Source: an uncultured Telmatospirillum sp.
GTDB lineage: Bacteria; Pseudomonadota; Alphaproteobacteria; Rhodospirillales; Magnetospirillaceae
Length of the DNA stretch: 43,385 nt
Assembly: GCA_903858635.1 (NCBI GenBank)
Contig: CAIOJO010000219.1
Span: 1-43,385 of the forward strand
Direction of reading: 5' to 3'
Shown: in pieces, positions 2,339-32,879 of the stretch
Layout of the letters: the number at the start of each line of letters is the position of its first letter
Position numbering within the stretch: position 1 is the stretch's first letter
The notes under the pieces: model-generated
Database searches by the model: none
What the model saw: only the letters and a program-made list of their open reading frames with translations
What the model was told of the DNA's origin: nothing
Program-made: the position numbers and the translations under genes

Positions 2339-2450
2339 GCCGAACCGCTGGCGGGCGCCGCCGACGCATGCCTGCCGGCCGCCCCAAATCGTCATTCGGG
2401 GCTCGCCTGCACCTGGAGTAGAATAGCCTTCAGACCGAGGGGCTCACGCC

Positions 2451-7296: not shown

Positions 7297-7442
7297 TCGG
7301 TCCTCCACCGGAAGTTGCTTTCCCACCGTAAGATGAACCAGGGTTGCTGACGCGGCACTGACGGGAGCCCGAGCTTTCGTGTGCCGGTGTGGCACGCGAA
7401 TGGCGCCTTGCGTGCCCCATAAGGGTTACCCATATTTTTTTG

Positions 7443-13467: not shown

Positions 13468-13667
13468 GACAAGGACCCCCCTTCCCCAGTGCGGCCGACC
13501 GGCGGTCGCGGCCTGATCCAAGTGATAGTAATTCATAGTAGCGCCAAGATTCCCCGACGTATATAGTCAGGATTGTATCGATTGCGGCCGGACCCATGCC
13601 GGGTCTACATCAAAGTATATCCAACCTCACCGAGGGAACGCGGCGATCGGGAAAGGGAGGACAGGGC
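13468..13667. promoter_or_regulatory. AT-rich divergent intergenic region between the lipoprotein operon (minus strand) and the lipopeptide operon (plus strand).
   Basis: A local GC drop (agtgatagtaattcatagtagcg...gacgTATATAGtcaggattgtatcgattg) in an otherwise roughly 70% GC window. TATATAG at 13561-13567 is a -10-like element. Small hairpin GACCC-atgcc-GGGTC at about 13593-13607. Confidence 0.3.
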
Positions 13668-16600
13668 ATGGGATTGCTTTCGTACCCCTGGGACATACAG
13701 GGCTTTTCGGTCTTGCCTGAACATCGCCGCGAGACCCGATCCACCCCACTTCGCCTATTCCCGAAGACGGGCCTGCGGCTGACTGCCTGCCTCGCCTTCG
13801 CGATTGCCGGAGGGGTTCCCGGGCCGGTGACCGCCGGCATGAGCGAGACCCAGATTTCCCCCATCGCCCAGGCCACCCTCGATGCCTTGGTCGGCTCTTC
13901 CCTGGTGCCGGGCGCCACCGCCGGCCTGCGGTTCGCCGACGGCACCACCTGGCTCGGTGCGTCCGGCTATGCCGACGCCGCCCACACCCAGCTCCTGACG
14001 CCCTCCACCGAGATGCGCATCGGCAGCCAGACCAAGACCTATGTCGGCACCGTCGTCCTGCAACTGGTGGCCCAGGGCGCCATCGGCCTCAACCAGACCC
14101 TGGCCCAGTGGCTACCCTCGCTGAACGTTCCCAATGCGGCGCAGATCACCATCCAGGATCTCCTGGACATGCGCAGCGGCATTCCCGACTACCTGACGGT
14201 GCCGTCGCAGCATGCCGGCTATGCGGGCAAGACCATCCTCGACGAATGGGCGCTGACCGGGGGCCAGGCCGTCTATACGCCGACGCAACTGGTCACCGCC
14301 ACCAACGGCGTCGCCCGGACGACGCCGGCGCCGGGCGGGCAGATGAGTTACACCAACACCGATTTCGTCATCCTCGCCCTGATCGCCCAGCAGGCGAGCT
14401 GTCTCACTGCCACCGGCTGCCAATCCATCGAGACCATGGTCAATCAGGGGGTCATCGCCCCCCTCGGGCTGACCCATACGGTCTTCCCGACCAACTCCGC
14501 CTTCACCGGCACGTTCAGCAACGGCTATGTGTTCGCCGTTCCCGGGGCGCCGGTGACCGGCTTCGGCTCCTACGCCAATCCCGCCGCCACCGTTCCGGTG
14601 TCCTTCACATCGATCAATCCGGCGGTCCCCTGGGCCGCCGGGGCCATGCTCTCGACCTCCCAGGACGAACTGGTGTGGGTCGGCCAGCTTACCCGCAATG
14701 TCGCCGGTTTGTTGCCGGCCTCGCTCCAGGCGCAGCGGCTCACCCTGCTGCCCAATGCGGAGGTTGCCGGCTATCCGGCGGCCTACGGCCTCGGCATTTA
14801 CTCTCAAGTTTCGCCTCTGAACGGCGATGTCTTCCTGGGCCATGCCGGGTCGATACCGGGATATACCTCGGCCCCGTTCGAGAACACCACCCTCGGCATC
14901 GATTACGCCGTCAACGTCAATGCCTACCCGGCACCGGACGGCACCAGCGCGGTGACGGTGATGTGGCAGCTCGACCAGAACGTCGCCGGTGCCCTGGTCG
15001 CTTCCGGCAATTGCAGCAGCACGACGGCGGGCGCCGCCGGCACCGCCGCCTGTTCCGGCGACAGCGTCCGCCTGGCGCCGCTGACCTTGCAAGGGGGAAA
15101 CCTGACCATCGCCCCGTCGGGCAAGATCTACAACGGCTACGACAATCCGGTGTCGAACGCCGACGGCAGCGTCACCGTCACGCCGACCGCTCTGCCTGTT
15201 CCGACGGTCGCCTTCTACGGCGACAACCTGACCGGGATGAGCCTCGGCGGCGGTGCCGGGCTGACCATTCAGGCCGGTGCCCTGCTGTCGATGACCGGCA
15301 ACAATTCGGCCACCATCGCCCTCACCGGCACCGGCAATTCCGTCGCCGTCGCCGGCATGCTGCAGTCGATGGGCCTCAACGCCGCAGCGCTCAGCGATTC
15401 CGGATCCGGATCGACCATCACCCTGATGCCGGGCAGCGCGATCAACGCCCAGACCGGTGCCACCGGCGCGGCCATCATGCTGGCCGGCAGCAATGCCACG
15501 CTGACCGTCGGCGGCAGCGTGCAAAACCTCAATCAGTTCAGCTACGGCGCCCTGCTCTATCCCGCCTTGATCGACCGGGGCCACGGTTCACGGGTCACGG
15601 TGACGCCGACCGGGTCGCTGACCGGCGCGGTCGATCTGAGCCAATCCGACACCCGGCTGCGCCTCGATGGGATGATCGCCGGCAGTGTCACCATGGGCAG
15701 CAATGCGAGTTTGAGCGGATCAGGCACGGTTGCCGGCGCCGTGCAGGGTGGCACCATCCAGCCTGGCGATCCGGGCGGCACCGCGGCGCTGACGGTCGGC
15801 AGCCTCACCGGCGCCGGCACCACCCTGGCCTTCGACCTCACCGGTCCGCTGGCGCCGCTGGCGGTGACCACCGTCGCCAGCCTTACCGGTGGCGCCCTCG
15901 TCGCCACCCAGGCTCCCGCCGCCGGCACGGACGTGGCGACGGTGCTGCAGGCCGGGAGTGTCAGCGGCAACTTCGCCTCGGTAACGGCGCCGGGCCGCGT
16001 CGCCGCCACCGCCAATTACGGCGCCGACACCGTCCAACTGGCCACCGTCAGCCCGGCGCTGCTGGATGCCGAGACCTTCGCGGCACAGCATTCGATGCTC
16101 ACCCAACTCGACGCGGTCCGCGGGCGGCTCGCCGGCTTGCCTCGGGACGGGGAGAGTCCCGCCGCCACCAACACGGCCTCCGTCGAGGGCGGAGGCGGCG
16201 GCTTGGACGCCATGGGCAATGCGCTGGCTGCGGCGCCCCTGTCGGTTTCCGGCGCGAAGGGCACCGTATGGGGCCGTGGCTTCTATGAAGGCGGCCATCT
16301 GGGCGGCGCCGATGGGGTGAGTCCTTTCGCCGCCGGTGGCGGCGGCTTCCTGCTCGGTGCCGATACCACGATCACCGACGCAGTCACGGTGGGCGGGGCG
16401 TTCGGCTACGACCATCTGATCACCGGCCGCATTGGCGCCGGCGACCGTTTCGAGGGCTCGGCCTATTACGGCACGTTGTACGGCGCCTGGACACGGAAGT
16501 CGCTGTTCGTTCGCGGGGCGCTGCTGATGGGCGCCGGGGATGACAGCCTGACCCGCAGCACCAGCCTGGCCGGCTCCACTCTCCTTAGCCAGGCGCATCC

Positions 16601-17084
16601 CACCGATTGGCGGTTGGGGGCCGAGCTCAGCGCGGGAAAGGTGATTCCCGCCTATGGATTCGACATCGTGCCCAATCTCGGCCTGAGCTATCTGCGGGTG
16701 GACCAGCCGGCGGTCACCGACAGCGGCGCCGGCGCATTCAACCTGTCGACCGGCGGCCGGACGCCCGAGCTTCTGCGGATCCGCGCCGGTGCTGATCTCG
16801 ACCACACGAGCACCGCCGGCGGCCGCACGGTCAGGACCGATCTCCGTCTCGCCTACGCCCATGACAGCATGCTCGGCGGGCAGACGGCGACCGCCGCCTT
16901 CGCCGGATTCGGCTCGCCCTTCGCCTTGATCGGCAATGGCCATGACACCGACTCCGCGGTGATCGGCCTCGGCGCCCAAGTCAAACTCGACTCCGGCCTG
17001 TCGCTCGCCGCCGATTTCGAGGAGGATGTCTCCTCCGCCTCCTCCACCCGTTGGTTCATGGGCACCGTACGCTATGCTTTCTGA
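13668..17084 (+). CDS. Autotransporter (type Va) with a beta-lactamase-fold, S12-like serine hydrolase passenger.
   Basis: GGGAGG Shine-Dalgarno, then the ATG at 13668. Signal peptide LRLTACLAFAIAGGVPGPVTA. SxxK motif SQTK, YxN motif YTN, and an HxG-type third motif HAGSIPGY. A G/A/T/S-rich beta-helix-like stalk. The C-terminal beta-barrel ends in the aromatic terminus RYAF. Confidence 0.8.
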   Translation: MGLLSYPWDIQGFSVLPEHRRETRSTPLRLFPKTGLRLTACLAFAIAGGVPGPVTAGMSETQISPIAQATLDALVGSSLVPGATAGLRFADGTTWLGASGYADAAHTQLLTPSTEMRIGSQTKTYVGTVVLQLVAQGAIGLNQTLAQWLPSLNVPNAAQITIQDLLDMRSGIPDYLTVPSQHAGYAGKTILDEWALTGGQAVYTPTQLVTATNGVARTTPAPGGQMSYTNTDFVILALIAQQASCLTATGCQSIETMVNQGVIAPLGLTHTVFPTNSAFTGTFSNGYVFAVPGAPVTGFGSYANPAATVPVSFTSINPAVPWAAGAMLSTSQDELVWVGQLTRNVAGLLPASLQAQRLTLLPNAEVAGYPAAYGLGIYSQVSPLNGDVFLGHAGSIPGYTSAPFENTTLGIDYAVNVNAYPAPDGTSAVTVMWQLDQNVAGALVASGNCSSTTAGAAGTAACSGDSVRLAPLTLQGGNLTIAPSGKIYNGYDNPVSNADGSVTVTPTALPVPTVAFYGDNLTGMSLGGGAGLTIQAGALLSMTGNNSATIALTGTGNSVAVAGMLQSMGLNAAALSDSGSGSTITLMPGSAINAQTGATGAAIMLAGSNATLTVGGSVQNLNQFSYGALLYPALIDRGHGSRVTVTPTGSLTGAVDLSQSDTRLRLDGMIAGSVTMGSNASLSGSGTVAGAVQGGTIQPGDPGGTAALTVGSLTGAGTTLAFDLTGPLAPLAVTTVASLTGGALVATQAPAAGTDVATVLQAGSVSGNFASVTAPGRVAATANYGADTVQLATVSPALLDAETFAAQHSMLTQLDAVRGRLAGLPRDGESPAATNTASVEGGGGGLDAMGNALAAAPLSVSGAKGTVWGRGFYEGGHLGGADGVSPFAAGGGGFLLGADTTITDAVTVGGAFGYDHLITGRIGAGDRFEGSAYYGTLYGAWTRKSLFVRGALLMGAGDDSLTRSTSLAGSTLLSQAHPTDWRLGAELSAGKVIPAYGFDIVPNLGLSYLRVDQPAVTDSGAGAFNLSTGGRTPELLRIRAGADLDHTSTAGGRTVRTDLRLAYAHDSMLGGQTATAAFAGFGSPFALIGNGHDTDSAVIGLGAQVKLDSGLSLAADFEEDVSSASSTRWFMGTVRYAF

Positions 17085-18790
17085 GGGACCCGTCACCACG
17101 CTGGTTGAAGCCATTACGGCGCAACGGCGCAACGACCGCGTCCTTGCCCTGGTGTCGGGGACTGGGCGCACCACCCGGCGGACCTTCGCCGAACTCTACG
17201 CCGACGCGGCGCGGACCCTGGCCTGGCTGACCGCCTCGGGGCTGCGGCCGGGCGACGAACTGGTCCTGCTCATGGAGGATTACCCGCGCTTCGTCGGCAC
17301 CTTCTGGGCCTGCCTGCTGGGCGGCATCATCTGCGTCCCGGTGTCGCCGCCGACCACTGCCGATATCGCGCTCCGCATCCACCGCATCCTCGACGTCCTG
17401 GCCAGTCCCTGGCTGATGGCAAGCGCTCCCATGCGGGAGCGCCTGGCGGCAGCCGAGGGCCAGCGGCAGGAGCCGATGCAGGGACGGATGCTGGATCCGC
17501 CGACCTTGGACGAGACCGCGCCGCTGGCCGAGGCGCGTCCGGCAAGCGCCGACGACATCGCCTTCATCCAGTTCTCCTCGGGCTCCACCGGCCAGCCCAA
17601 GGGGGTCGTGCTGACCCATGCCAACCTGCTTGCCAACATCGCCGCGATCAAAGCCGGCGCCAAATTGGAGGAGACCGACCGGCTGGCGAACTGGATGCCG
17701 CTGACCCATGACTTCGGCATAATCTGGTTCCATATCATGCCGATGGTGCTGGGGCTCGACCATGCACTGATCCCGACACCGCTGTTCGTGCGCAACCCGC
17801 AGATCTGGTTGCGCACCATCGATTCCTTCAAGGCGACGGTGTCGGCCGCACCCAATTTCGCCTATCGCCACCTGCTCAAGCATCTGCGCAAGGAGATGCG
17901 GCGGGATTGGCGGCTGGACAGTCTGCGGCTGATCACCAACGGGGCGGAGCCCATCTCGGTGGGACTCGCCCGCAGCTTCGAAGCGGAGTTCGCCGGGGAC
18001 GGCCTGCGCGCCGGCGTGATCACTGCCGCCTACGGCCTGGCCGAAGGCACCTTGCTCGTCACCATGGCGGAACCCGGAACCGGCCTGCGGGAAATCGGCG
18101 TCGACCGCCGCGCCCTGTCCGCCGGCGACCGCGTCCGCCCGCTGCCCAACCGGGAGGACCCCGACCGCGCGGCCTTCGCCGAGGTCGGCCGGCCGGCTCC
18201 CGGCGTCGCCGTCCGCATCGCCGGCCAGGCGGATACACCCTGCGACGAGGGCATCGTCGGCCGCATCCAGATCCGCGGTCCTTGCGTGACGCCCGGCTAC
18301 TATCGCAATGAGCAGGCGACCCGGGCGGTGATGACCACGGATGGCTGGCTCGACACCGGCGATCTCGGCTTCATCGAGGACGGGAGTCTCTGTGTCACCG
18401 GGCGGCGCAAGGACGTGGTCATTCTGGGCGGGGCCAACTACTACCCACCGGATATCGAACGCGCCGCGGCGGATGTGCCCGGCCTCGATCTCAACATGGT
18501 GCTCGCCTGCGCCGTCCCTGTGGGCGAGGGCGAAGGCCTGGCTCTGTTCGCGCTGTTCCGCCAACCGATCGAGCAGTTCCCCGAACTGGCGCGCCAACTG
18601 CGCGACGCGGTGGTGCGCCAGATCGGGGTCCCGGTCGATTACTGCCTGCCGGTGACGCAGATCCCGCGCACCACCAGCGGCAAGGTGCAGCGCTACCGGT
18701 TGGCCGAGGACTTCAAGGCCGGCGTCTTCGCCGCCGAGATCGCCGCCCTGGAAGGATTCGAGCGGTCCGCCTATGCCCCCTTGCGCGACG
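17074..18790 (+). other. Fatty acyl-AMP ligase (FAAL) starter domain.
   Basis: [41 protein letters not shown], and GYYRNEQ...[11 protein letters not shown]...[20 protein letters not shown] (FAAL-type). Confidence 0.8.
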
Positions 18791-21700
18791 CCTGGCGCGC
18801 GGGTCGGCGGCGCGACCTCCTGGCGCGGCTCGGTGAGGAGGCGGGACGGCTGGTGCCCAGCGGCGCGGTAGCGGTCGACCAGCCGCTGATGAGCGCCGGC
18901 ATGACCTCGTTGCGCCTGGTCGAACTGGTCAGCCGGCTCAACACCGCCCTCGACCTGTCGCTGGCGGCCACCTTCCCGTTCGAATATCCGACGCTGGAGG
19001 ACATGGCCGAGGCCCTGCTCGGCATGCGCATCGCAAGCCAGGCGGAAGGCCCGGGCCCGACACAAGACTCTGGGGCGGGCGTTCCGCTTCGTGGCGAGGA
19101 TCGTCCGGGAGAGCCGATCGCCGTCATCGGCATCGGCTGCCGCCTGCCCAACGGCATCGACGGTCCCGACGCGTTGTGGAAACTTCTCGCCGAGGGCCGC
19201 GACACCGTCGGCCAGCCACCGGCCGGGCGCTGGCCCGACCCCTCGGCCGCCCCGGCGCCGGGATCCTGGCTGGCCGATCTCGACTTGTTCGACCACCGGC
19301 TGTTCCAGCTGTCGCCGGCCGAGGCCGCTGTCCTCGATCCCCAGCAGCGGCTGCTGCTGATGGTGAGCTGGCAGGCCTTCGAGGATGCCGGCATCGACCC
19401 GTTGGGTCTGCGCGGCAGCCGCACCGCGGTGTTCACCGGAATCACCAATCTCGACCAAGCCCGCTCCCAGGCCCGGGCCGGGCGCGAGGCGATGACCGGG
19501 CCTTACGCGGTGACCGGCGTATCGGCCAGCGTCGCTTCGGGCCGGCTGTCCTTCGTCTACGGTCTGGCCGGACCCAATCTCGCCATCGATACCGCCTGTT
19601 CTTCCGGGCTGGTGGCGGCGCATCAGGCGATGCGCAGTCTGCGGGCCGGCGAATGCGACCTCGCCCTGGCCGCCGCGGTCAATCTGATCCTGGTGCCCGA
19701 CACCCAACTGGGGCTTCAGGCGATGAACGCCCTGTCCCCCGACGGGCGCTGCAAGGCGTTCGACGCCCATGCCGACGGCTACGGCCGGGGCGAAGGCTGC
19801 GTCGTCCTGGTGATGAAGCGCCTGGCCGATGCAGTACGGGACGACGATCGGGTCCTGGGACTGCTGCAGGGCAGCGCCGTCAACCACGACGGCCGCAGCA
19901 GCGGGCTGACGGCGCCCAACGGCGCGGCGCAGCAGGCCGTCCTGCGGGCCGCCCTGGCCGACAGCGGCCTGGCCGGCAGCGCCATCGATTATGTCGAAGC
20001 CCATGGTACCGGCACGCCCCTGGGCGACCCGATCGAAGCCAATGCGCTGGGCGCCGTGTTCGGCGAAGACCGCCCGGCCGATCTGCCGCTGCTGGTGGGG
20101 TCGGTAAAGACCAATATCGGCCATCTCGAAGCGACAGCGGGTCTGGCCGGGCTGGTCAAGCTGCTGCTCGCCCTCGAGCATGGCCGCATCCCGCCCTCGC
20201 TGCATTTCAGCGAACCGAACCCGACCATTCCCTGGTCCGCCTTGGCGCTCGAGGTCACTGCCCAGGCGGTCGCCTGGACGGCCGGCCAGGACCGCCCCCG
20301 CCGGGCCGGGGTCAGCGCCTTCGGTTTCAGCGGCACCAATGTCCATGTCATCGTCGAGGAGGCAGCCGTCCCGGCGCCGCCGGCCAGGGTCGCCGGCCTT
20401 CCCCTGCTGCTGCCCTTGTCAGCGCGCAGCGACGCGGCCTTGGCCGCCATGGCCAAGACGACGGCCGCCGAACTGGCCGGCGCCGACGACGGCCGCCTCG
20501 TCGACCTCGCCTACACCCTGGCCACCGGACGCGCCGCCCTCGACCGGCGGATCGCGGTGGTCGGCCGCAGCAGCGCCGACCTTGCCGGCCGCCTCGAAGC
20601 GGCGGCGGCCAGACCGCAGCCGCCGGCCAGCGGCACGCCGGAGGTGATCTTCGCCTTTCCCGGGCAGGGTTCGCAAATGGCCGGGATCGCCGGCGAACTG
20701 CTCGCCCTGTCGCCGATCTTCCGCGACACCGTGGCCCGCGCCGATGCGGTCCTGGCACCCCGCCTCGGCCGGTCGCTGACCACGCTGCTGGCCGAATCCT
20801 GCAACGCCGCCGATTTGGCCCGCACCGGCCTCACCCAGCCGGTGGTGGTCGCCCTCGGCGTCGCGCTGGCGGCAATGCTTGAAGATTGGGGTATCCGGCC
20901 AACCGCCGTGCTGGGCCATTCGGTCGGCGAGATCGCCGCCGCCATCCATGCCGGAGCGATCGCCTTCGAGTCCGGCCTGGTCTTTGCCGCCGAACGGGGT
21001 CGGCTGATGGAGGGGCTGCCGGAAGGCGGCGCCATGGCGGCGGTGGTCGCCAGCGAGGACGAAGTGCGGGCGCTGCTCGACTCCGATCTCGCCCAAGATC
21101 TGGCCATCGCCGCCTTCAACGCCCCCAATCAGCTCACCATCTCCGGGCCGGCCGCGGCGCTGTCGGCATTCCGCGAACGCGCCTCGGCGCGCCACCTGCG
21201 GGTGGTGCCGCTGGCGGTGTCCCATGCCTTCCATTCGCCGCTGATCGAACCGGCCCTGCCCGAGCTCGCCCGCCTCGCGGCGCAATTGGTACCGGGCCGG
21301 CCGCGCCTGCCGGTCCATTCGACGCTGACCGGCGGCCTGATCGATCCCGCCGCCCTGACCGATCCCGATCATTGGCTGCGCCATGCCCGCCAGCCGGTGC
21401 GCTTTGCCGAAGCGCTGGGCTCGATTCCGCTGCGACCCGGGGCCTGCCTGATCGAACTCGGCGCCCGGCCGGCGTTGGGGCCGCTGGCGGCGCAGACGCA
21501 GCCTGATCTGCTCTGCCTGCCCGGCGCCAGTCAGGACGGCCTGGCTGTGGCGATGCTGGATTGCGCCGCCGCCCTGTTCATCGCCGGCACCGCCCTCGAC
21601 TGGCCGAGGCTTTACGCCGGCATTGGCGGCCGCCGGGTGCGGGCGCCCGGCTATGCCTTCGTCGAGCCGGTGCCGGCGGCTTCCCTGTTCACCGCGTCGG

Positions 21701-24700
21701 CGCCCCCGCCGTCCACCGGCGCAGGCAACGATCGAACGGTGACGGCGACGGTCACCGCCTTGCCCGTGACGGCGCCCGGCGCGACACCGCGTCCGGCGCG
21801 CCTGGCGGCGCGGCTGGTGGCGCTGGTGGCGGCGATCAGCGGGCTGCCCCCGGCCGACATCCCGCCGCGGACCAACTGGTTCGGATTCGGCCTCGATTCG
21901 CTGCTGCTGGTGCAGATCCAGCACGCGGTGAACCGGGAATTCGGCCTCGCCCTCACCCTGGCCGACCTGCTCAAGGACGGCGACAGCGTCGACGCCCTGG
22001 CCGGCCTGCTCGACCGCAGCCTGCCGGCCGAAGTCGTGCCGGCCGCGCTGCCGCCGGCCGCCGCCGCCGGGCCGGCATTGCCTGGCGATGTCGGCAGCTT
22101 GATGGCGCAGCAGGTCGAGGCGATGAGCCGGTTGTTCGCGCAGCAGCTCGACACCCTGAAGGACCTTGGCCGGGAAACTCCGGCGACGGCGGCCCCGCCG
22201 CCCGCGGCGAAGCCGAAGACCGGGCCGGAAGCGGGATCCGGCATCGAGATCAAAGGCCTGTTCCGCAAGATGCCGGCCCGGCGCGACGACTTCACCGGCG
22301 ACCAGATCGCCCATTTCGACCGGCTGGCGGTGCAATACGGGGCGCGGACCAAAGGTTCGAAGGACCACACCCAACGCCATCGCGGCCACTATGCCAACCC
22401 CCGCGCCATCATCGGCTTTCGCCCGGAATGGAAGGAGATGACCTATCCGCTCACCGTCGAGCGGGCGGAAGGGGCCCATGTCTTCGACGTCGACGGCAAT
22501 CGCTATGTCGACATCACCATGGGTTTCGGCGCCATCCTGCTTGGCCATACGCCCCCTTTCGTCGCGGCGGCAATCACCGCCGAGCTGGGGCGCGGCGCCC
22601 CGCTCGGACCGCAATCGCCCAAGGCCGGTGAACTCGCCGCGGTGATCGCCGAACTGACCGGAGTCGAGCGGGTGGCCTTCTTCACCACCGGCTCGGAAGC
22701 GGTGATGGTGGCGGTCCGCCTGGCCCGCTCGGTCACCGGCCGGCGCAAGATCGTGTTGTTCACCGGCGCCTATCACGGCACCTTCGACGGCGTGCTGGCC
22801 GCCGGTTGGGCGGACGGCGACAGCCTGGTCACTATTCCGGTCACCGACGGCACCCCGCAAAGCCTGGTCGACGACACCATCGTCCTGCGTTACGGCGACC
22901 CGGGCGCCCTCGACCGCATCCGGGCCCATGCCCAGGACATCGCCGCGGTGCTGGTGGAGCCGGTGCAAAGCCGCGACCCCGCCCTCCAACCCCACGACTT
23001 CCTGCATGCGCTGCGCGGCCTGACCCGGGACGCCGGCATCGCCCTGATCTTCGACGAGGTGATCCTCGGCTTCCGCGTCCATCCCGGCGGCGCCCAGGCC
23101 CATTTCGGCATCGAGGCCGATATGGTCACCTATGGCAAGATCGTCGGCGGCGGCCTGCCGATCGGCGTGGTCGCCGGCCGCCGGCAGTTCCTCGACGCGG
23201 TCGATGGCGGTGCCTGGTCCTATGGCGACGATTCGCTGCCGGCAGCGCGCACCGCTTTCGTCGCCGGCACCTTCAACGGCCACGCACTGTCGATGGCCGC
23301 CGGCCTGGCTGTGCTCGATCATCTGCGCAGCGCCGGCCCCCGGCTGCAGCAACGGCTGAACGAACGCACCGCCCAGTTCTGCGCCGAACTCGACGGCTTC
23401 TTCGCCGCCGAGCGGGTGCCGATCCGCATGGCGCATTTCTCCTCGCTGTTCCGCTTCGAGTTCACTCCGGGGACCGAACTTCTCAACACCCATCTGCTGA
23501 ACAACGGCGTGTTCGTCTGGGAGGGCCGCAACTGCTTCCTCTCCACCGCCCATGACGATGCCGATCTCGCCACCATCGTCGCGGCGGTGCGTCACGGCGT
23601 CGCCGAGATGCGCCGGGACCTGATGATCCCGGTGGCGGAGACGCCGGCCGAACCGGACGCGCCGATCCCCCTGTCGCAGGTGCAGCGCGAGATCTTCTTC
23701 CTGGCCGCCGCCAACGAAGCGGCCGGGCGCGCCTATCACGAAATGGTGGCGCTCGACCTGCAGGGCCCCTTCGACGCCGGCGCCATGGATCGCGCCGTCC
23801 GCCGCCTGGCGGCACGCCACCAGGCGCTGGGCATGGCCGCCGTCGACGGCGAGACCTGGCGGCCGGCCGCAGCCCCGTTGTCGCTGCCGGCCGCCAGCGA
23901 GATTGGCCCGGCGCCCGAAGCGCTGCGCCAGGCGCTGGCCGCGGAGATCGACCGGCCCTTCGATCTCGCCGCCGGTCCGCTGCTGCGCTTGGCCCTGCTG
24001 CGGCGGGGCCCGGACCATCATTGCCTGGCTCTGACCGCCCATCACATCGCCGTCGACGGCTGGTCGCTGGGCCTGCTGACCGGCGAGCTGGGCGCCCTGT
24101 ACGGGGCCGAGCGGCAGGGACAGCCCCTGGATCTACCGCCCGCCGCGCCGTTCGGCGAATTCGTGCAGTGGGCCGCCCAACTGGCGCCCGCCGCTGCCGG
24201 CAAGCGTCTGCCGCCGCTCGACTTGCCGGCGCTGGGGGCGGCGGACGACAGCGGCCGGGCCCGGCGGCTGCATCGCCGCGATCCGGCGGCGCCCGACGGG
24301 GGCCGGCTGTTGGCCCAGCTCAAGCGCTTCGCCCGCGACCAGGGCGCCAGCCCGTTCGCCGTCCTGCTGGCCGCCTTCACCGCCTTTTTCGGCCGCTTGG
24401 CCGGCCAGGGCAGCTTCGCCGTCGGCATGCCCTATGCCGGCCACGCCGCCGCCGGATTGCCGGTCATGGTCGGCCAGGCCTCGGTAATCCTGCCGATCCC
24501 GGTGAGGCTGGACCCCGCGCTGAATTTTGCCGAGCATTTGCGCCACAGCAGCGACGCCCTGGCCGAGGCGCTGCAGGGCGCCCTCGATCTGATGCGCCCC
24601 GGCACCCCGGTGCGCGCGCCGATCACCGCCTTGGTCAACATGGATCGCGGTGTCGAGGTGACCTTCGACGGGCTGACGGTGGACTGGGTATCGGCGCCGG

Positions 24701-27700
24701 CGATCCGCGCCAAGCACGGCCTGTTCCTCAACCTGCTCGAGTTCAACGGCAGCGCGCTGTTCGATTTCGATTGCGACGGCGCAATCGCCGATGCCGAAAC
24801 CGCCGAACTGTGGTTCGACGGCCTGCTCGCCCTGCTGGCCGCCGCCATCGCCACGCCGCAGATGGCGCTGGGCGCCCTGCCGATGCCGGCGGTCGCCGAC
24901 CGGACCCGGCCGGCGGATCGCCCGCGGCACCGCCGGCCCCGCAACATCGAACCGCCCGCCACGGCGGAAGAGGCCCGGCTGGCGGCGATCTGGGCCGAGG
25001 CCCTCGGCCTGGAGGAGGTCGGCGTTACCGAATCCTTCTTCGATCTCGGCGGCCACAGCCTGGCCGGGCTGGCCATCCTCAGCACCATCGAGCGGCAGAC
25101 CGGCCGCAGGGTGCCGATTCGCCTGTTCTTCGAAGGACCGTCGGTGCGGGCGCTGGCGGCGGCCCTCGGCCGGACGGAAGACCCAGCCCCGGCCATCCGA
25201 CCGACGCCGGAAGCAGCCGATTACCCTGCTTCCAATGCCCAGGCGCGGCTGTGGATGCTCGAACAGCTCAATCCCGGGCTCACCGCCTATAACGTCGGGA
25301 TCGGGCTATGGAGTCCGGCGCCACTGGATCCGGCGGTGGTCCGCCGCAGCCTGGCGCGGTTGGCGGAGCGCCATGAAAGCTTGCGCACCGCCCTGATCGA
25401 GCGGGATGGGCTGCCGCGCCAGAAGATTGCCGCAACCATCGCCCTGCCGCTCGCCGAACGGGCCGTCGCCGACCGGGCCGCCGCCATCCTGGAGGCGCAG
25501 GCCCTGGCCGCCGCCCCGTTCGACCTGGCGGAAGCGCCCCTCTGGCGGGCCCTGCATCTGAAGCTCCCGAACCAGGACTGCCTGCTCCTGGTGCTCCACC
25601 ACAGCATTTGCGACGTCTGGTCGATGACGGTCCTGGTCCGCGACTTCGTCGCCTTTGCCCAGGGGGCCGATCCGTCGCCCCTGCCGATCCAGTTTCGCGA
25701 TTACGCGGCCCAACCGCAGCGACCGACAGACAGCGATCCCGATCTCGCTTATTGGCGGGACCAGCTTGCCGGGCCACCGGCCTTCCTCACTCTGCCGAGC
25801 GACCATCCGCGCCCGGCCGTCAAGGGTTACGACGGCGCCCGGGTCCGCACCAGACTATCGGCGGCGATGGCCGAACGCGTGCGGGCACTGGCGGCGGACC
25901 ACGGCACCAGCCTGTTCGTGGTGCTGGCGGCAGCGCTCAAGGCATTGCTGCATCACCGCACCGGCGAGAGCGACCTCACCATCGGCACGGTGGTGGCCGG
26001 GCGGGAACAGGCCCTGCTCGACGATCAGATCGGTTTCTTCGTCAACACCCTGCCGCTGCGCGACCGCATCGACCCCAAGGCCGGCTTCGACCGGCTGGTG
26101 GCGCAGCTGCGCCGGACGGTGCTGGAAGCATTCGAGCATCAAGCGGTGCCTTTCGAGCAGATCGTCGAGGCCTTGCCGCGCGACACGGCGCGCAACCCGC
26201 TGTTCGAGATCATGCTGGTGATGGACGACCGCCAAGGCATCCGTGCCGCCGGAGCGCCGCTCGGACTGGAACCCTTCGAGATCGAATTGCCGACCGCCCA
26301 ATTCGACGTCACCCTCTACGTCACCGACGAGCCCGCCTTCATCGACCTGCACACCGTCTACAACAGTCGCCTGTTCAAGGAAGAGCGCATCGCGGCGTTG
26401 ATGGCGGATTTCGGCCTGCTGCTCGACCAGGTCACCGAGCAACCCGAGACTCCGGTGGCGGCATTGGCGTCCACAACCGTCCTCGCCAACAGCCATCAGG
26501 AGCGCCTGTGGTTCGTCGACCGCTTCGAGCGGGGCGTGCTCTACCCGTCCGGCCCCACCTACTACAATATGCCGCTGGCGGTGGAAATTGCCGCCGGCTT
26601 CGATGGCGACCGCCTGCGGCAGGCGCTGGCAGAACTGTCCGGGCGCCATCCGGCGCTGCGCACCGCCTTCCTCGAAGACAGCGAGACTCCGCTGCTCCGT
26701 GTTGCCCGGCAAGGCGATCCGGTGCCGCTGCGGGAGCTGTCTTCGGTGGCCGATCCCCTTGCCGCCGTCATCGCCGAATCCCAGGTGCCGTTCCGCCTGG
26801 CCACCGCCCCCCTGTGCCGCGCCATCCTGGCCCGCCGGCCGGACGGCAGCGGTCTGTTGGCGCTCGCCGCCCATCACGCGGTGACCGATCCGGTGGGTCT
26901 GCGGCACCTGCTGGCCGATCTGCTGGCGCTGACCGCCGATCCCGCCGCCCCGCCGCCGGCGCCGGCCACCGAACCCGTAACGGCTGTCGACGAGGCCGAA
27001 GCCGCCGCCTATTGGCATGAGGCGCTGGCCGGTGCGGCCCCCTTGGTCCTGCCGACCGACCGGCCGCGGCCGGGAATCCACCTCTACGAAGCCGGGCGCA
27101 CCGCCTTCACCCTGCCCGCCGCCCTGCTGCGTCGGCTCGATGCCGCGGCCAGCGAGCGCGGGCTGGCCCGCTGCGACCTGCTGCGCGCCGCCTTCCAGAC
27201 CCTCCTGCACCGCTTGTCCGGTCAGAGTGATATCGTCCACGGGGAACCGCTGCATCGGGCCCATTTCCCCGCCAATCTGCTGGTACTGCGGAGCGATCCG
27301 GGCGCCGCAGCGAGCCTCGCGGCACTGGCCGCCCGGGGGCGGGTCGAACGCGCCGCGGCCGAACGGCATGGGGCAATGGCCTTCGACCGCGTCGTACTGG
27401 CCGTCAAACCGCAGAACGATATGAGCCGCACCGCCCTGTTCGACGTGCTGTTCGACGACGGAGAGGGAGAGCTTGCCGGACTGGCCGACCCCAGCTTGAT
27501 CGATCCGGGTCTGGGCTGGGGCAAATACGATCTCGTGCTCTGCTTGCGGGGCGCCGGCGAGGACCTGTCGGTCAGTCTGGTCTTCAACCGGCTGTTGTTC
27601 GACGACGCCAGCGCCGACCGCATCGCCGAATTGTTCCGCCGACTGGCCGAGGCGGCAGCGAACGACCCGGACGCGCCGCTGGCGTCGGTCGACCTGCTCG

Positions 27701-30700
27701 GAGCGGCGGCACGCTTTGCCCTGGCCGAGTCGCTGGCGGTGCCGGCCCCGCAGCGGACGGATGCGACGATTCCCAGCCTGTTCCGGGCGGTGGCCGCGGC
27801 GCGCGGCGAGGCCATCGCCGTAACCGACGGCGAGCGCCAGATCAGCTATCGCCAACTCGACCGTGCCGCCCAGGCCATCGCCGCCCGCTTGCGCGCCGCC
27901 GGCATTGGCCGGGACAGTCGCGTCGGGGTGATCATGGAACGCGGCGCCGAACTGATCGCCGCCTTCCTCGGTATCCTCGACGCCGGCGCCGCCTATGTGC
28001 CGATCGATCCCGAGCTGCCCCCGGACCGCATCCGCTTCGTGATCGCCGATGCCGGCCTTGGCGCCCTTTGTGTCGCCGCCGGGACGGGAACCGGGTTGCA
28101 ACAGCTGGACGTCGCCCTGCCGGTCGTCGCAATCGACCGGGTGGAAATGCTGGTGGCAACCCCGGCGCCGCCGGCGGCGCCGGGAACCAGCGATTCCGCC
28201 CCCGAGGATCTCGCCTATGTGATCTACACCTCGGGCTCCACCGGCCAACCCAAGGGGGTGGCCATCGAACATCGCAACGTCGTCCAGCTGCTGTTTCAGG
28301 ACGGCCTTCCCTTCCGCTTCGATGCCGCCGATGTGTGGACCTTGTTCCATTCGCCCAGCTTCGACTTCTCGGTGTGGGAAATGTACGGCGCCCTCCTGTT
28401 CGGCGGCCGGCTGGTGGTGGTCAGGCGCCATCAGGCGGCCGACCCGGCGGCGATGGTCCGCCTGCTGGCGGGCGAGGGCGTGACCGTGCTCAATCAGACC
28501 CCGACGGCATTCCAGGGCCTGAGCGAAGCGGCCCTGGCCGAGGCGCCGCAGCCCCTCGCCCTGCGTTTGGTGATCTTCGGCGGCGAAGCGCTGCAGCCGG
28601 CCGGGCTGGCGCGCTGGCGGGACCGCTACCCGGCGGTGCGGCTGGTCAATATGTACGGCATCACCGAAACCACCGTCCATGTCACCTGGGCGGAGATCGG
28701 CGACGCCGAGATCGCCACCGGTCAATGCCTGATCGGCAGGCCGCTGCCGACCTATGGCCTGGTGCTGGTCGATACGGCGCTGCGCCCGGTGCCGGACGGC
28801 CTGCCCGGGGAAATCTGCGTTACCGGGCCTGGCCTGGGGCGCGGCTATCTCAACCGGCCGGAGCTGACCGCCGAGCGTTTCCTCGCCCTGCCGGATTTCC
28901 CCGGTCGTCGCTTCTATCGCTCCGGCGATCTCGCCTGGCGGCGTGGCGACGGGGCGCTGATCTACCTCGGCCGCCGCGACGACCAGGTGAAGATTCGCGG
29001 CTTCCGCATCGAGTTGGCCGAGATCGAGCGGCAGCTTCTGGGACAGGCCGAAATCCGTCAGGCGGTGGTGCTGCCGGAACCGTCCGATGGCGGCCGCAGC
29101 CTGACCGCCTGGCTGGTCGCCGCCTCCGCCCTCGCCGGCGGCCTGAATGGCGAGACGGTCCACCGCCATCTCGGCGACAAGCTGCCGGCCTATATGATTC
29201 CCTCGCGCTTCGTCGAGTTGCCGGCCATACCGCTGACCCGCAACGGCAAGATCGATCGGCGGGCACTCGGCGGCGCCTCCGGCCGCGTCCTCGCCACCGT
29301 GCGCGGCGGCGCACCGGCAACGGATGGACTCGAACGGACCATCGCCACCATCTGGCAGGAAATTCTTGGCGGAGCCCTGCCGGGCCGCGAGGATAATTTC
29401 TTCCTGTTGGGCGGCCACAGCCTGCAGGCCAACCAGGCGGTGGTGCGCCTGCGCCGCGCCTGCGGCTGCGCCCTGAGCCTCAAGGATTTCTTCAGCGCAC
29501 CCTCGCTCGGCGCCTTGGCCACCCTGATCCGCTCCGGCGCGGCGCAGGCGGGCGGCGACCAGCCGCAGACGATCACCCGCGCCGAAGCCATTGAGGGCAG
29601 TTATCCGTTGTCGCCGGCGCAGCGCCGCTTGTGGTTGCTGCAATCGCGGGACCCGCGGACCCTCGCCTACAACATGGTGGGAGCCTTCCGGATCGACGGA
29701 GCCCTGGACCGCGAAACGCTTGCCCGCGCCTTCGCCCAACTGCTCGCCCGCCATGAAGTGTTGCGCAGCCGTTTCGTCGAACGGCGCGGCGAACCCCGCC
29801 AGGTTGTCCTGCCCGCGCCGGCGAAGTTTGCCCTGCCCTCGACCGTGGTGGCGGCAGCCGATCTCGACCAAGCCATCGATCGGGTGGTGGCCGAGGAACT
29901 GCGCCATGTTTTCGATCTCGGCCGCGGCCCGCTGCTGCGCGCCCGGCTGATCGCCGCCGCCGGCAGCAACGGCGAGGGCCATTACGGGCTGGTTCTCAAT
30001 ATGCACCATATCGTCGCGGACGGCTGGTCGGTGACCGTGCTGCTGAACGATCTCGCCCGCCTTTACGGCGGCGGCGACCTGCCGCCCCTTCCCGTCCAAT
30101 ACAAGGATTATGCCGCCTGGCAAACCGCACTGCTGGCCGACGGCAGCCTGGCCACCCAGCGCGCCTATTGGCATGCCCGCTTCGAGGATGAACCGGCGCC
30201 GCTCGACCTGCCGCTCGACCGTCCGCGAGCGGCCCAGCCGAGCCAGGCCGGCGCTTTGCTGCAGGTCCGCCTCGAACCGGCACTGGCGGCAGCGCTGGAA
30301 GCAAGGGCACGGGCCGCGGATTGCAGCTTGTTCATGCTGCTGCTGGCGATTCTCCAGGTGCAGCTGCATGCCCTTTCCGGCGCCGACGAAGTGGTCATCG
30401 GCACCCCGGTGGCCGGGCGCAACCATGTCGATCTCGAGGCGCAGATCGGCTTTTATCTCAACCTGCTGCCGCTGCGGCTCGGCCTCGGCGGCGCCAGCCG
30501 CTTCTCCGAGCTGTTGGCCAGCGCCCGCGCCGTCGCTCTCGACGCCTTCGCCCACCAGGATTATCCCTTCGACCGCCTGGTGGAAGAGCTCGCCCCCGTC
30601 CGCATCCCCGGCCGCCAGCCGCTGTTCGACCTGCTGCTGATCCTCCAGAACAACGATCCACCGCGACTGGCGCTGCCCGGGGCACGGACGGAATTGCTGC

Positions 30701-30963
30701 GCGATGCCACGGTGAGCGCCAAATACGACCTCAATTACATGTTCGAGCGGGATGATGGACTGTCGCTGACCATCGAATATGCGACCGAGTTGTTCGACGC
30801 CCCGACCGTCGAACGCTTTGCCGCCGAATTCCAGCGCATCGCCGCCATCGTCGCCGTGGACGGCGATGCGTCGCTGGCCCCTTTGTTGGCCGGCGGCAGG
30901 GTTGTCGCCGAGGCCGCTTTCCTGGGTTCGGCCGCCCCGGCGGCACGGGGCGAGGACTGGTAG
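17074..30963 (+). CDS. Hybrid FAAL-PKS-aminotransferase-NRPS megasynthase. Domain order: FAAL-ACP-KS-AT-ACP-AMT-C-T-C-C*-A-T-C.
   Basis: See the domain features below. The preferred start ATG at 17074 ([14 protein letters not shown]...) resembles FAAL N-termini and overlaps the autotransporter stop by 11 nt. The alternative in-frame ATG at 17026 (MSPPPPPP) has its Shine-Dalgarno too close. Confidence 0.95.
18840..19040 (+). other. Carrier protein 1 (ACP).
   Basis: [15 protein letters not shown]; phosphopantetheine-attachment Ser context. Confidence 0.6.
19111..20360 (+). other. Ketosynthase (elongating).
   Basis: The Cys-His-His triad is intact: [33 protein letters not shown]. Confidence 0.85.
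20641..21620 (+). other. Acyltransferase, malonyl-type.
   Basis: FPGQGSQ, GHSVGE, and HAFHS (an HAFH motif typical of malonyl-CoA specificity). Confidence 0.8.
21790..22020 (+). other. Carrier protein 2 (ACP).
   Basis: [14 protein letters not shown]. Confidence 0.65.
22290..23620 (+). other. Class III PLP aminotransferase (AMT) domain, the beta-amino-forming domain seen in iturin/mycosubtilin-type synthetases.
   Basis: [42 protein letters not shown], and the PLP-Lys region [13 protein letters not shown]. Confidence 0.8.
23668..24900 (+). other. Condensation domain C1.
   Basis: [10 protein letters not shown]...; HHIAVDGWS. Confidence 0.8.
24955..25170 (+). other. PCP with no cognate A domain in cis.
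   Basis: [30 protein letters not shown] sits directly between C1 and C2. There is no room for an A domain of about 500 aa. Confidence 0.75.
25219..26470 (+). other. Condensation domain C2.
   Basis: [13 protein letters not shown]...; HHSICDVWS (HHxxxD present, the Gly replaced by Val). Confidence 0.75.
26479..27760 (+). other. Second, contiguous C-like domain (C*) with a degenerate active-site motif.
   Basis: [12 protein letters not shown]...YYNMPLAV... follows C2 directly without a carrier. The motif is HHAVTDPVG instead of HHxxxDG. Confidence 0.65.
27770..29275 (+). other. Adenylation domain A1.
   Basis: [72 protein letters not shown]. Confidence 0.85.
29320..29540 (+). other. PCP.
   Basis: IWQEILGG...[11 protein letters not shown]. 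Confidence 0.75.
29593..30960 (+). other. Condensation domain C4 at the C-terminus of gene 1; it forms a split module with the A-T at the start of the second NRPS.
   Basis: [13 protein letters not shown]...; [10 protein letters not shown]. Confidence 0.8.
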
Positions 30964-30967
30964 CCCC

Positions 30968-32845
30968 ATGTGCGGAATCGTCGGCATTTTCGACCCCGCC
31001 AGCGAGGGGCTTTCGTCGCCGGACCTGCTGCGGCGGATGGCGGGAGCGCTCCGCCATCGCGGCCCCGACGACGAGGGCTTCTTCGAACGGCCGGAAGTTC
31101 AACTGGGCTTCCGCCGCCTGGCGATCATCGACCTCGCCGGCGGCAACCAGCCGATGGCCAGCGCCGATGGCCGGGTGGTCTCGGTGTGCAACGGCGAGAT
31201 CTACAATTATGCGGAACTGCGCAGCGAACTAGAGGCGCGCGGCCACCGCTTTCGGACGAACTGCGACGTCGAGGTGATCCCGCCGCTCTATCTGGAATAC
31301 GGACCGGATTTCGTCACCCGCCTCAACGGCCAGTTCGCTTTCGCCCTCTACGACATTCCCAATCGCCGCCTGATGCTGGCCCGCGATCCGGTGGGCATCG
31401 CGCCGCTGTTCACCGTCGCCTGCGGCAACGGCCTGCTGTTCGCTTCCGAGATCAAGGCCCTGCTGCAACATCCCGCCACCCCGCGGGCCGTCGACCTGAC
31501 CGGGCTCGACCAGATCCTGACCTTTCCCGGCCCGGTCAGCCCGCGCACCATCTTCCGGGACATTGCCAGCCTGGCGCCAGGCAGCCGCATGATCGTCGAG
31601 GCTTCGGGACGGCGGCGGATCGATACCTATTGGGATCTCGACTATCCGCGCATGGACGTGGCAGCGCCGGTGGGCCGCGAGGAAGACTACGTCGACGCCC
31701 TCGACGAGGCACTGCAAGCCGCGGTGCGGCGCCGGTTACGAGCCGACGTGCCGGTGGGCCTCTATCTGAGCGGCGGCCTCGACAGCTCGCTGATCGCCGC
31801 CATGGCGCAGGGGATCTCGGGCGGTGCCGACCGGCAATCCTTCGCCATCGGCTTCCACGACCCCGCCCTCGACGAGCGCCGCTACCAGCAGATCATGGTG
31901 GAACGACTCGGTACCCGCCATCATCAGGCGATCGTCGATCCCGATGCCATCTGCGGACGGCTGCGCGACATCGTCTTCCATGCCGAAGCGCCGCTGCGCG
32001 AATCCTACGACGTCTGCTCGCTGATCCTGTCCGGCCTGGTCCGCGATAATGGCATCAAGGTGGTGCTGACCGGCGAAGGCGCCGACGAGCTGTTCGGCGG
32101 CTATGTCGGCTATCGCCTGGACCCGCATCGGGCCGATGCCGAAGACGACGACCCCAATGACCTCGAAGCCCAGCTCGAGGCGGAGACTCGCCAGCATCTG
32201 TGGGGCGATCGGAATTTCTTTTACGAAAAGCCCTATCGCGCCTTCGCCGACCTCAAGACGGCGCTCTATGCGCCGGCGCTGCGCGAAGCCTTCGCCGAAT
32301 TCGACTGCCTGCGGGACTCGCCGGTCGATCGCCGCCGGCTGGACGGACGGCACGTGCTGCACAAGCGCTCCTATCTCGATTTCAAATTGCGCCTGGCGGA
32401 TCACCTGCTGGCCGACCATGGCGACCGGGTCGCCTACGCCCATTCGATCGAAGCGCGCTATCCCTTCCTCGACCCCCAGGTCATCGACCTGGTGCGGACC
32501 CTGCCGCCCGACCTGATGGTGAAGAACGGCATCGAAAAATACCTGCTGAAACGCCTCGCCGCCCGCTACCTGCCGGCCGCCATCACGGAACGCCAGAAGT
32601 TCAGTTTCGTCGCTCCTCCGGGACCGGCGCTGCTGCAGGCCGGCCATTCCTGGGTCGAGGACCTGTTATCGCCCGAACGCATCCGGCGGCAAGGCTATTT
32701 CGACCCGGAGACCGTCGAGGCGATGAAGGCGCAATATCGCCGGCCCGATTTTGCCCTCAACCAGACCTTCGACGATGATCCGCTGATGGTCGTCCTGACC
32801 TTCGGCATCCTGCTCGAAACCTTCGACCTGCCAAACCTCTCCTGA
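30968..32845 (+). CDS. Asparagine synthetase (glutamine-hydrolysing) AsnB-like amidotransferase.
   Basis: N-terminal nucleophile MCGIVG; PP-loop LYLSGGLDSSLIAA. The ATG lies 4 nt after the megasynthase TAG stop. Confidence 0.9.
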   Translation: MCGIVGIFDPASEGLSSPDLLRRMAGALRHRGPDDEGFFERPEVQLGFRRLAIIDLAGGNQPMASADGRVVSVCNGEIYNYAELRSELEARGHRFRTNCDVEVIPPLYLEYGPDFVTRLNGQFAFALYDIPNRRLMLARDPVGIAPLFTVACGNGLLFASEIKALLQHPATPRAVDLTGLDQILTFPGPVSPRTIFRDIASLAPGSRMIVEASGRRRIDTYWDLDYPRMDVAAPVGREEDYVDALDEALQAAVRRRLRADVPVGLYLSGGLDSSLIAAMAQGISGGADRQSFAIGFHDPALDERRYQQIMVERLGTRHHQAIVDPDAICGRLRDIVFHAEAPLRESYDVCSLILSGLVRDNGIKVVLTGEGADELFGGYVGYRLDPHRADAEDDDPNDLEAQLEAETRQHLWGDRNFFYEKPYRAFADLKTALYAPALREAFAEFDCLRDSPVDRRRLDGRHVLHKRSYLDFKLRLADHLLADHGDRVAYAHSIEARYPFLDPQVIDLVRTLPPDLMVKNGIEKYLLKRLAARYLPAAITERQKFSFVAPPGPALLQAGHSWVEDLLSPERIRRQGYFDPETVEAMKAQYRRPDFALNQTFDDDPLMVVLTFGILLETFDLPNLS

Positions 32846-32879
32846 GGATGGCGAAATAAGGAACGGGACCATAGACGCC

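Follow-up and report, generated by a model that had tools for sequence, protein, structure and literature searches.

A condensation-carrier module without an adenylation domain in an alphaproteobacterial lipopeptide synthetase cluster, and the candidates for charging it

Modules of nonribosomal peptide synthetases (NRPS) that lack an adenylation (A) domain, and A domains that act iteratively, are already established. PCP3 of HMWP1 is a further A-less carrier that depends on a non-cognate A domain, and stand-alone loaders are known as EndD of enduracidin, Ramo17 of ramoplanin, SyrB1/SyrC of syringomycin and the pairs of A-carrier (A-T) proteins with type II thioesterases (TEII) of WS9326A. For capreomycin, CmnA-A1 has been shown experimentally to charge the A-less CmnI besides its own carrier (PMC12400406); the A-less module 2 of pandorachelin carries Thr, and its charging by the neighbouring Thr-specific A domain has been proposed (PMC13592322); how A-less modules are charged in thalassospiramide and WS9326A is covered in a review (PMC10510592). 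Here we describe a module of this kind in a 43,385-nucleotide contig (CAIOJO010000219.1; hereafter the window) of an uncultured Telmatospirillum sp. It consists of a condensation (C) domain, C1, and a peptidyl carrier (T), T3, inside a 4645-aa hybrid of polyketide synthase (PKS) and NRPS. On balance, we favour the reading that C1-T3 would still work as an elongation module although its own A domain is gone, and that T3 would be charged, as a second carrier, by an A domain of the same cluster.

The C1-T3 module and its cluster

The 4645-aa protein was scanned against Pfam in overlapping pieces, and the 601-aa segment that holds C1-T3 matched PF00668 (E 3.3e-39) and PF00550 (E 7e-16). Only ~35 Pro/Arg-rich residues lead from C1 to the first helix of T3, and 16 residues separate T3 from C2; there is no space for an A domain between C1 and T3. 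A preliminary description of this DNA had reported a C-T module without an A domain at 23668-25170, with the carrier directly behind C1 and C2 directly behind the carrier, and no free-standing A domain in the window. That observation is correct in all details. C1 and T3 together occupy 23665-25167, within 3 nt of the reported span, and tblastn with A-domain queries on both strands of the 43-kb window returned four ANL domains, namely a fatty acyl-AMP ligase (FAAL) and the A domains A1, A2 and A3, and no free-standing A domain. The sequence matches of C1 in the PDB were C domains, the FscG PCP-C chain aligning over residues 3-398. C1 has an intact HHxxxDG motif (HHIAVDG at aa 2339), T3 has the phosphopantetheine serine (GGHSL; GGDSL in the orthologous locus L085), and the absence of an A core between the two is reproducible among orthologues. 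No match to MbtH or to a TEII was found in the window by tblastn with hand-composed query sequences. A single-sequence AlphaFold2 model of C1-T3 had a mean confidence score (pLDDT) of 35 and was too poor for use.

NRPS genes are in general prone to the collapse of repeats during assembly, and the preliminary description had itself named an A domain lost in this way as what would overturn it; nothing specific to this window points to such a loss. Eight contigs in several metagenome assemblies carry the asparagine synthase protein that is encoded behind the hybrid. Three of them for which DNA was available, each from a different assembly, matched window positions 20968-33000 at 99.97-99.99% identity with zero gaps; two of these three span the whole stretch, including C1-T3, and the third starts at 28211. 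The longest direct repeat within 17026-40229 is 58 nt long at 78% identity and corresponds to the A3 core motif, long repeats being absent from both synthetase genes. Because independent assemblies agree without gaps, long repeats are lacking and diverged orthologues show the same A-less order with a decayed remnant of the A domain, assembly collapse is excluded, and we give an artefact of this kind practically no weight.

The module lies in a compact five-gene cluster on the + strand, as defined by open reading frame (ORF) calls, Pfam and gene calls in the independent contigs. The PKS-NRPS hybrid (synthetase 1) is a single unbroken ORF, 17026-30963 (+). Its Pfam order is FAAL-ACP1-KS-AT-ACP2-AMT-C1-T3-C2-C3-A1-T4-C4 (ACP, acyl carrier protein; KS, ketosynthase; AT, acyltransferase; AMT, aminotransferase). 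The domains span FAAL 32-570, ACP1 598-664, KS 696-1061, AT 1209-1469 and ACP2 1596-1662 at the start of the protein, AMT 1807-2131, C1 2214-~2640, T3 2651-2714, C2 2731-3147 and C3 3150-3561 in the middle, and A1 3586-4075, T4 4105-4168 and C4 4190-4614 at the end (aa). Synthetase 2 (2449 aa) reads A2-T5-C5-A3(MT)-T6-E, where MT is methyltransferase and E is epimerization. The features are as follows.

23665-24945, +: C1 condensation domain, directly behind AMT (PF00668 E 3.3e-39; HHIAVDG at 24040-24060)
24946-24975, +: end of the short Pro/Arg-rich C1-T3 linker, the site of the A remnant in orthologues (four-way alignment)
24976-25167, +: T3, peptidyl carrier without a cognate A domain (PF00550 E 7e-16; GGHSL, Ser2678 at 25057-25059)
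25216-27708, +: C2 (HHSICDV) and C3 (HHAVTDP), tandem LCL-type condensation domains (Pfam, 301 and 181 bits)
27781-29529, +: A1 (code DFWNIGMVHK, threonine) and T4; candidate loader of T3 (code by alignment to GrsA)
29593-30867, +: C4, C-terminal condensation domain of synthetase 1, presumed partner of A2-T5 (Pfam, 323 bits; HHIVADG)
30968-32845, +: glutamine-hydrolysing asparagine synthase, AsnB (Pfam; TIGR01536)
32880-40229, +: second synthetase, 2449-aa NRPS, whole gene (ORF call, Pfam)
32880-34655, +: A2 (code DVRHLALLAK) and T5, N-terminus of the second synthetase; candidate loader of T3 (code by alignment to GrsA)
34716-40229, +: C5, A3 (code DAATIAAVCK, methyltransferase-interrupted), T6 and terminal epimerization domain, with no thioesterase (Pfam; code by alignment to GrsA)
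40216-40929, +: Sfp-type phosphopantetheinyl transferase (Pfam PF01648, PF22624; gene call in independent contigs)
13596-17084, +: PF00144/autotransporter gene (Pfam)
17119-21432, +: FAAL-ACP1-KS-AT, activation of a fatty acid and one malonyl extension (Pfam; motifs DTACSS, HGTGT, GHSVG, HAFH)
21811-23418, +: ACP2 and class-III aminotransferase (AMT), donor of the beta-amino fatty acyl group for C1 (Pfam PF00550, PF00202)

Orthologous loci and the remnant of an A domain

Relatives of the cluster were sought by a scan of one genome per species and then by walking from homologues of the asparagine synthase; the survey as a whole covered the ~43 kb window and +/-10 kb around each orthologous locus. 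The genome scan yielded collinear orthologues at ~49% identity in Xanthobacter sp. VTT E-85238 (L001) and in a Rhizobiales metagenome-assembled genome (MAG) (L002), and the asparagine-synthase homologues led to two further orthologous loci, L085 from a JGI metagenome and the partial L084. L001, L002 and L085 are 45-50% identical to the window at the amino-acid level and have the same A-less order. The orthologous loci share the domain order of synthetase 1 from FAAL to C4 and, behind AsnB, that of synthetase 2, A2-T5-C5-A3(MT)-T6-E. The orthologous gene set is synthetase-AsnB-synthetase, to which a phosphopantetheinyl transferase or an ABC transporter is added in some. The synthetase of L002 is split at ~9650-9700 into two overlapping ORFs within C2, which is probably a frameshift or sequencing error and not a natural split. 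An orthologue that still has its A domain and is nearer than the four A-less lineages did not turn up in scans of genome and metagenome contigs, where further AMT-C-A-T loci were only ~30% identical, and a plasmid collection search and the first protein-homologue search returned no close relatives.

An A core between C1 and T3 is absent from every lineage. L001, L002 and L085 retain 135-165 aa at this site, which correspond to a degenerate C-terminal part of an A domain. These remnants cover motifs A7 to A10 (TGDLG/TGQLG, LGR, TAFVV), with blast E values of 1e-15 to 1e-28 and an E value of about 1e-3 against Pfam AMP-binding_C, and the A10 lysine is replaced (ADGT-D). In a four-way alignment with these loci the window shows a clean deletion of ~125 columns at the remnant site. 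Apart from themselves, the remnants of L001 and L085 match each other best, so these lineages split after the truncation had occurred; the window lineage deleted its remnant cleanly at a later time. We attempted to read the specificity of the lost A domain from the remnants; they resembled the C-terminal subdomains of A domains in general to the same degree and showed no kinship to A1, to A2 or to domains of the Gly type.

The next-nearest relatives of C1 are C domains right behind an AMT in other phyla, nearly all of them in complete C-A-T modules whose A domains have mostly glycine-type codes (DIL[QA]LG[LM][IV]WK), with one threonine code. Since the orthologues keep the vestigial C-terminal part of an A domain, C1-T3 is a decayed ordinary C-A-T module and not one built for an exotic, separately tailored residue. 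The preliminary description had noted that A-less modules are often a mark of unusual residues, and this does not fit a module with such vestiges in its orthologues and with relatives that mostly load glycine. In Paenibacillus sanfengchensis (L005, 8762-14863) we observed the order FAAL-ACP-KS-AMT-C-(A-domain remnant)-T, with a C-A-T module of the Gly type behind it. This locus represents an independent instance of the same decay, and loss of the A domain right behind an AMT has thus arisen more than once.

Conservation was compared across the window, L001, L002 and L085 in the four-way alignment. Identity to the orthologues is 45-46% for C1, 44-64% for T3, 45-53% for C2, C3 and C4, and 59-61% for T4; the AMT is the most conserved domain (66-70%). 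The HHIxxDGWSLG motif of C1 and GG[HD]SL of T3 are invariant in the four lineages. Because the catalytic motif and the carrier serine are invariant and conservation equals that of the neighbouring domains, the module is probably active rather than dead or skipped.

Candidate loaders of T3 and the path of the chain

The preliminary description had concluded that a carrier lacking a cognate A domain depends for its charging on an A domain from outside its own module, and this core inference stands. The module is conserved and catalytically intact by its appearance; a dedicated loader was not found in the window. It had further proposed loading in the manner of SyrB1 and SyrE, for which the cluster offers no parts. 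No free-standing A or A-T protein was found, either by tblastn in the 43 kb or in the gene set of the five lineages, and no shuttle (SyrC/CmaE-type or TEII-like), halogenase or hydroxylase was found in 13596-40929 by Pfam and, for TEII, tblastn. Re-use of an A domain of the cluster is the most likely route because the five-gene set is conserved without a dedicated loader.

Alignment to GrsA gave the specificity codes of the A domains. A1 has the canonical threonine code DFWNIGMVHK (DFWSVGMVHK in L001 and L002), and its nearest relatives have Thr codes. A3 has the Phe/Tyr-like code DAATIAAVCK, and none of A1-A3 has a glycine or an asparagine code. The A2 code, DVRHLALLAK, is identical in L001 and L002, and we know of no counterpart to it. 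Among solved structures, the second A domain of LgrA, which activates Gly, is nearest to A2 (394 bits vs 287 for the next match), and the closest kin of A2 among the loci compared include a domain of the beta-alanine type and two whose code is almost identical, which places A2 in a small-amino-acid (Gly/beta-Ala) lineage. Compared with a glycine pocket, that of A2 has Arg, His and Ala in place of the closing Leu, Gln and Trp. Codes similar to that of A2, DVRHISLLAK and DVRTLALLAK, also occur in unrelated loci of a Streptomyces and an Archangiaceae MAG (L074 6949-8394, L043 8922-10397).

The suggestion in the preliminary description that the downstream A1 is re-used held in so far as A1, with its threonine code, is a candidate; it is not the sole one, and A2 is at least as plausible. 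A1 belongs to the same polypeptide and to the next module, and in L001, L002 and L085 T3 resembles T4 slightly more than it does T5; as a loader of T3, A1 is a tentative possibility. A2 is a free N-terminal A domain on a separate protein, like CmnA-A1, its small-amino-acid lineage fits the mostly Gly acceptors of the relatives of C1, and the T3 of the window is closest to T5; it may equally be the loader, and we rate the two about equal. Carrier similarity gave no consistent signal when tried as a guide to the loader, T3 being nearest to T5 in the window (44%) and nearer to T4 or T6 in L001, L002 and L085. In the scheme that we favour, FAAL would load a fatty acid, KS and AT would extend it with malonate, and the AMT would turn the beta-keto group into a beta-amine on ACP2. 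C1 would then pass the beta-amino acyl chain to an amino acid on T3, which A1 (threonine) or A2 (putative small or polar substrate) would have charged, and C2 or C3 would hand the product to Thr-T4. With one A domain serving two carriers, the residue behind the beta-amino fatty acid would duplicate another residue of the peptide.

Several points weigh against this scheme. Loading of T3 by A1 or A2 is what we infer from sequence comparison, the carrier-similarity hints contradict each other between lineages, and the A remnants show no specific kinship to A1, A2 or Gly domains. An unlinked loader is conceivable since the survey extended only over the regions given above. Furthermore, C2 or C3 is surplus and there is no release domain, so that the assembly line is incompletely understood and the collinear view may be wrong.

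A dedicated stand-alone A or A-T protein encoded off-cluster, acting with or without a shuttle enzyme, seems to us a rather unlikely loader of T3, as the same compact gene set recurs in five lineages with no such gene in or beside it, and specialised loaders are usually clustered with their pathway. It draws some support, besides the extent of the search, from the lack of a glycine code in A1-A3 set against the mostly Gly-type A domains in the complete relatives of C1, and from a divergently transcribed A gene that adjoins some actinomycete A-less C-T loci (L006, L012, L015, L028). The AsnB-like enzyme had also been proposed to supply the carrier. It might load T3 or create its cargo, for example from a dicarboxylate that is bound to a carrier, in the way known for OxyD and malonamate, and AsnB is strictly kept between the synthetase genes in all five lineages (window, L001, L002, L084, L085) although no A domain of the cluster has an asparagine code. 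However, the protein behaves as an ordinary asparagine synthase, which would provide free asparagine at most. It starts with MCGIVG and has an intact glutaminase nucleophile, Cys2; it scores 466.7 against the asparagine-synthase equivalog NCBIfam TIGR01536 (cut-off 267.1); it is 55-71% identical to ordinary AsnB across phyla, and the Azospirillum AsnB (64%) is more similar to it than its cluster orthologue from L002 is (59%). AsnB enzymes form amides, and we know of none that forms a thioester. We consider it very improbable that AsnB makes or loads the T3 cargo, and by these comparisons it is not plausible as a carrier loader; its probable role is to make free asparagine or to amidate a carboxylate. 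Its assignment as a beta-lactam synthetase or another specialised enzyme was rejected, given the presence of Cys2 and a score above the equivalog cut-off.

A different type of explanation is that T3 is not an ordinary aminoacyl carrier. The module might be skipped, or C1-T3-C2-C3 might be a way-station or branch point at which a second chain enters through the tandem C domains, C4 then releasing the product, e.g. via the beta-amine. What speaks for this is that a collinear scheme requires four condensations and the cluster has five C domains, so that one of C2 and C3 is surplus. C2 (HHSICDV) and C3 (HHAVTDP) stand in tandem, ~15 residues apart, between T3 and A1 and are conserved in L001, L002 and L085. 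In addition, no thioesterase (TE) or reductase was found in the cluster (Pfam scans of window ORFs; tblastn for TEII), synthetase 2 starts with A-T and ends with E (38910-40229) and a short COM-like tail, APSHFPMDQAHLENLLVGD, and none of the proteins encoded in the window has a C domain at its N-terminus. Icosalide provides a case in which a second chain enters at tandem C domains (PMC10510592). Nevertheless, the motif of C1 and the serine of T3 are invariant and as conserved as their surroundings, and C2 and C3 score ~2-3x higher against LCL-context than against DCL-context C domains; by this comparison they are LCL-type, not DCL- or starter-type, and look unsuited to a D-configured chain coming from the E domain. 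We also know of no precedent for thiol-to-thiol transfer by a C domain, and we judge this explanation quite unlikely.

Prompted by the icosalide arrangement, we also considered a specific non-collinear, convergent line. Synthetase 2 (A-T-C-A-T-E) looks like a self-contained initiation unit, and its D-terminated dipeptide and the beta-amino-lipid would both be joined to Thr-T4 at C1-T3/C2-C3. C4 would then release a macrocycle by way of the beta-amine, and the lack of a TE would be accounted for. If this were true, the cargo of T3 and its loading route could be unconventional, and the C-terminal vestige of the A domain that the orthologues retain might be an adaptor on which a foreign A core docks. 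That C2 and C3 are LCL-like speaks against their acceptance of a D-configured donor, and we regard this model as improbable.

Other assignments for the tandem C domains were also tried. Their PDB matches are C domains and not E domains, which together with the LCL scoring led us to reject an epimerization or DCL function. The signature of dehydrating CmodAA domains comprises a strictly conserved DG in the active-site motif, a [K/R]SVLLAAH helix before motif C5 and affiliation with the D clade (PMC11342130). C2 and C3 show instead HHSICDV and HHAVTDP, the helix of C3 reads RCDLLRAAF, and both behave as LCL-type; the match of C3 to AmbE had an E value of only 6e-9, at rank 24. Interface (I) domains have a C-like fold without HHxxxDG and recruit trans hydroxylases (PMC13638107). 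C3 keeps HHxxxD in all lineages and was not assigned to this group. The terminal domain of synthetase 2 matches solved E domains from PvdL, TycA, TycB and GrsA, and the last residue of the product is predicted to be a D-aromatic amino acid. A3 is interrupted between A8 and A10 (~37400-38800, NRPS2 aa 1500-1900) by a ~470-aa domain with weak Methyltransf_25/PRMT5-like Pfam matches and not with matches to the usual NRPS N-methyltransferase models.

Neighbouring genes, significance and comparison with known systems

The protein encoded at 13596-17084 combines a serine-hydrolase passenger of the S12/PF00144 type, with an SQTK motif, with a long region rich in Gly, Ala and Thr and with the beta-barrel of an autotransporter. 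Among solved structures, alkaline D-peptidase and R61 DD-peptidase are nearest to it, and by eye it has an N-terminal signal-like hydrophobic segment. The stop of this gene overlaps the called start of the synthetase (17074), which suggests that the two are co-transcribed. A role as a SurE-type offloading cyclase was rejected on account of the signal-like segment, the autotransporter barrel, the closer similarity to D-peptidases and a SurE match of only E 2e-5. In L001 (Xanthobacter; 31-1311 and 2008-3195, minus strand) a different PF00144 protein, not orthologous to that of the window, precedes the synthetase, and an S58 (DmpA/BapA-type) aminopeptidase is encoded on the opposite strand. The S58 family is known to cleave N-terminal beta-amino acids, and its presence is notable beside a cluster that would make a beta-amino acyl peptide. 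In the window, a gene for a TauD-family Fe(II)/2-oxoglutarate dioxygenase (6370-7395, - strand) lies ~6 kb upstream of the cluster, with two-component regulator and ParA-like genes in between; its product has weak similarity to amino-acid beta-hydroxylases.

The case is sound and at the same time fairly ordinary, because the arrangement is documented in other pathways, and it does not overturn the current view of NRPS enzymology. What is new is an uncharacterised alphaproteobacterial lipopeptide family with visible stages of A-domain decay, from relatives with a full C-A-T module, through a C-terminal remnant in three lineages, to a clean deletion in the window. The loss hits the module right behind the aminotransferase domain, with a parallel in Paenibacillus. 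Recognition of A-less modules helps to avoid wrong structure predictions, since genome-mining software assumes that one module equals one residue; the product here would be predicted one residue short. A cultured host of an orthologous cluster exists in Xanthobacter sp. VTT E-85238 (NZ_JBAFWP01), so that the loader, the tandem C domains and the release step are open to experiment.

Among described systems, module 9 of SyrE resembles C1-T3 as a C-T unit without an A domain that receives its aminoacyl group from elsewhere; SyrB1-SyrB2-SyrC of syringomycin differ as a dedicated A-T protein, halogenase and aminoacyl shuttle within the cluster, a set that the cluster of the window lacks. Module 3 of capreomycin and viomycin (CmnI/VioI, charged in trans by CmnA-A1/VioA-A2) likewise has a carrier and a C domain and no A domain, and its loader is the N-terminal A domain of another synthetase, as A2 is here, with no need for a shuttle (PMC12400406). 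CmnI is a separate T-C protein of an actinomycete pathway with an MbtH partner, whereas the C-T unit of the window lies inside a 4645-aa PKS-NRPS hybrid, no MbtH was found in the window, and its charging is deduced from sequence.

Module 2 of pandorachelin, from Pandoraea, is alike in being an internal A-less C-T unit of a proteobacterial lipopeptide synthetase that is kept in all related clusters, with a neighbouring Thr-specific A domain as the proposed loader of both carriers (PMC13592322). In pandorachelin the A domain that acts as donor precedes the A-less unit (C-A-T-C-T), and Thr-Thr is confirmed by the structure of the product, whereas A1 of the window is downstream with two C domains in between.

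The start of synthetase 1 finds its counterpart in iturin and mycosubtilin (MycA: acyl ligase-ACP-KS-AMT-C-A-T) and in the cyanobacterial puwainaphycin-type FAAL/PKS/AMT hybrids, in which a fatty acid is activated, extended once and transaminated, and the C domain directly after the AMT hands the beta-amino acyl thioester to the first amino acid. The first modules of these lines have A domains of their own, and a TE stands at the end; in the window the A core of the first peptide module is deleted, an AT is integrated, the C domains are in tandem and a terminal TE is lacking. The Pfam order of the window has the acyl ligase-ACP, KS, class-III AMT and C domain of iturin-type initiation, and its AMT is 52% identical to the AMT of a Paenibacillus iturin-like locus.

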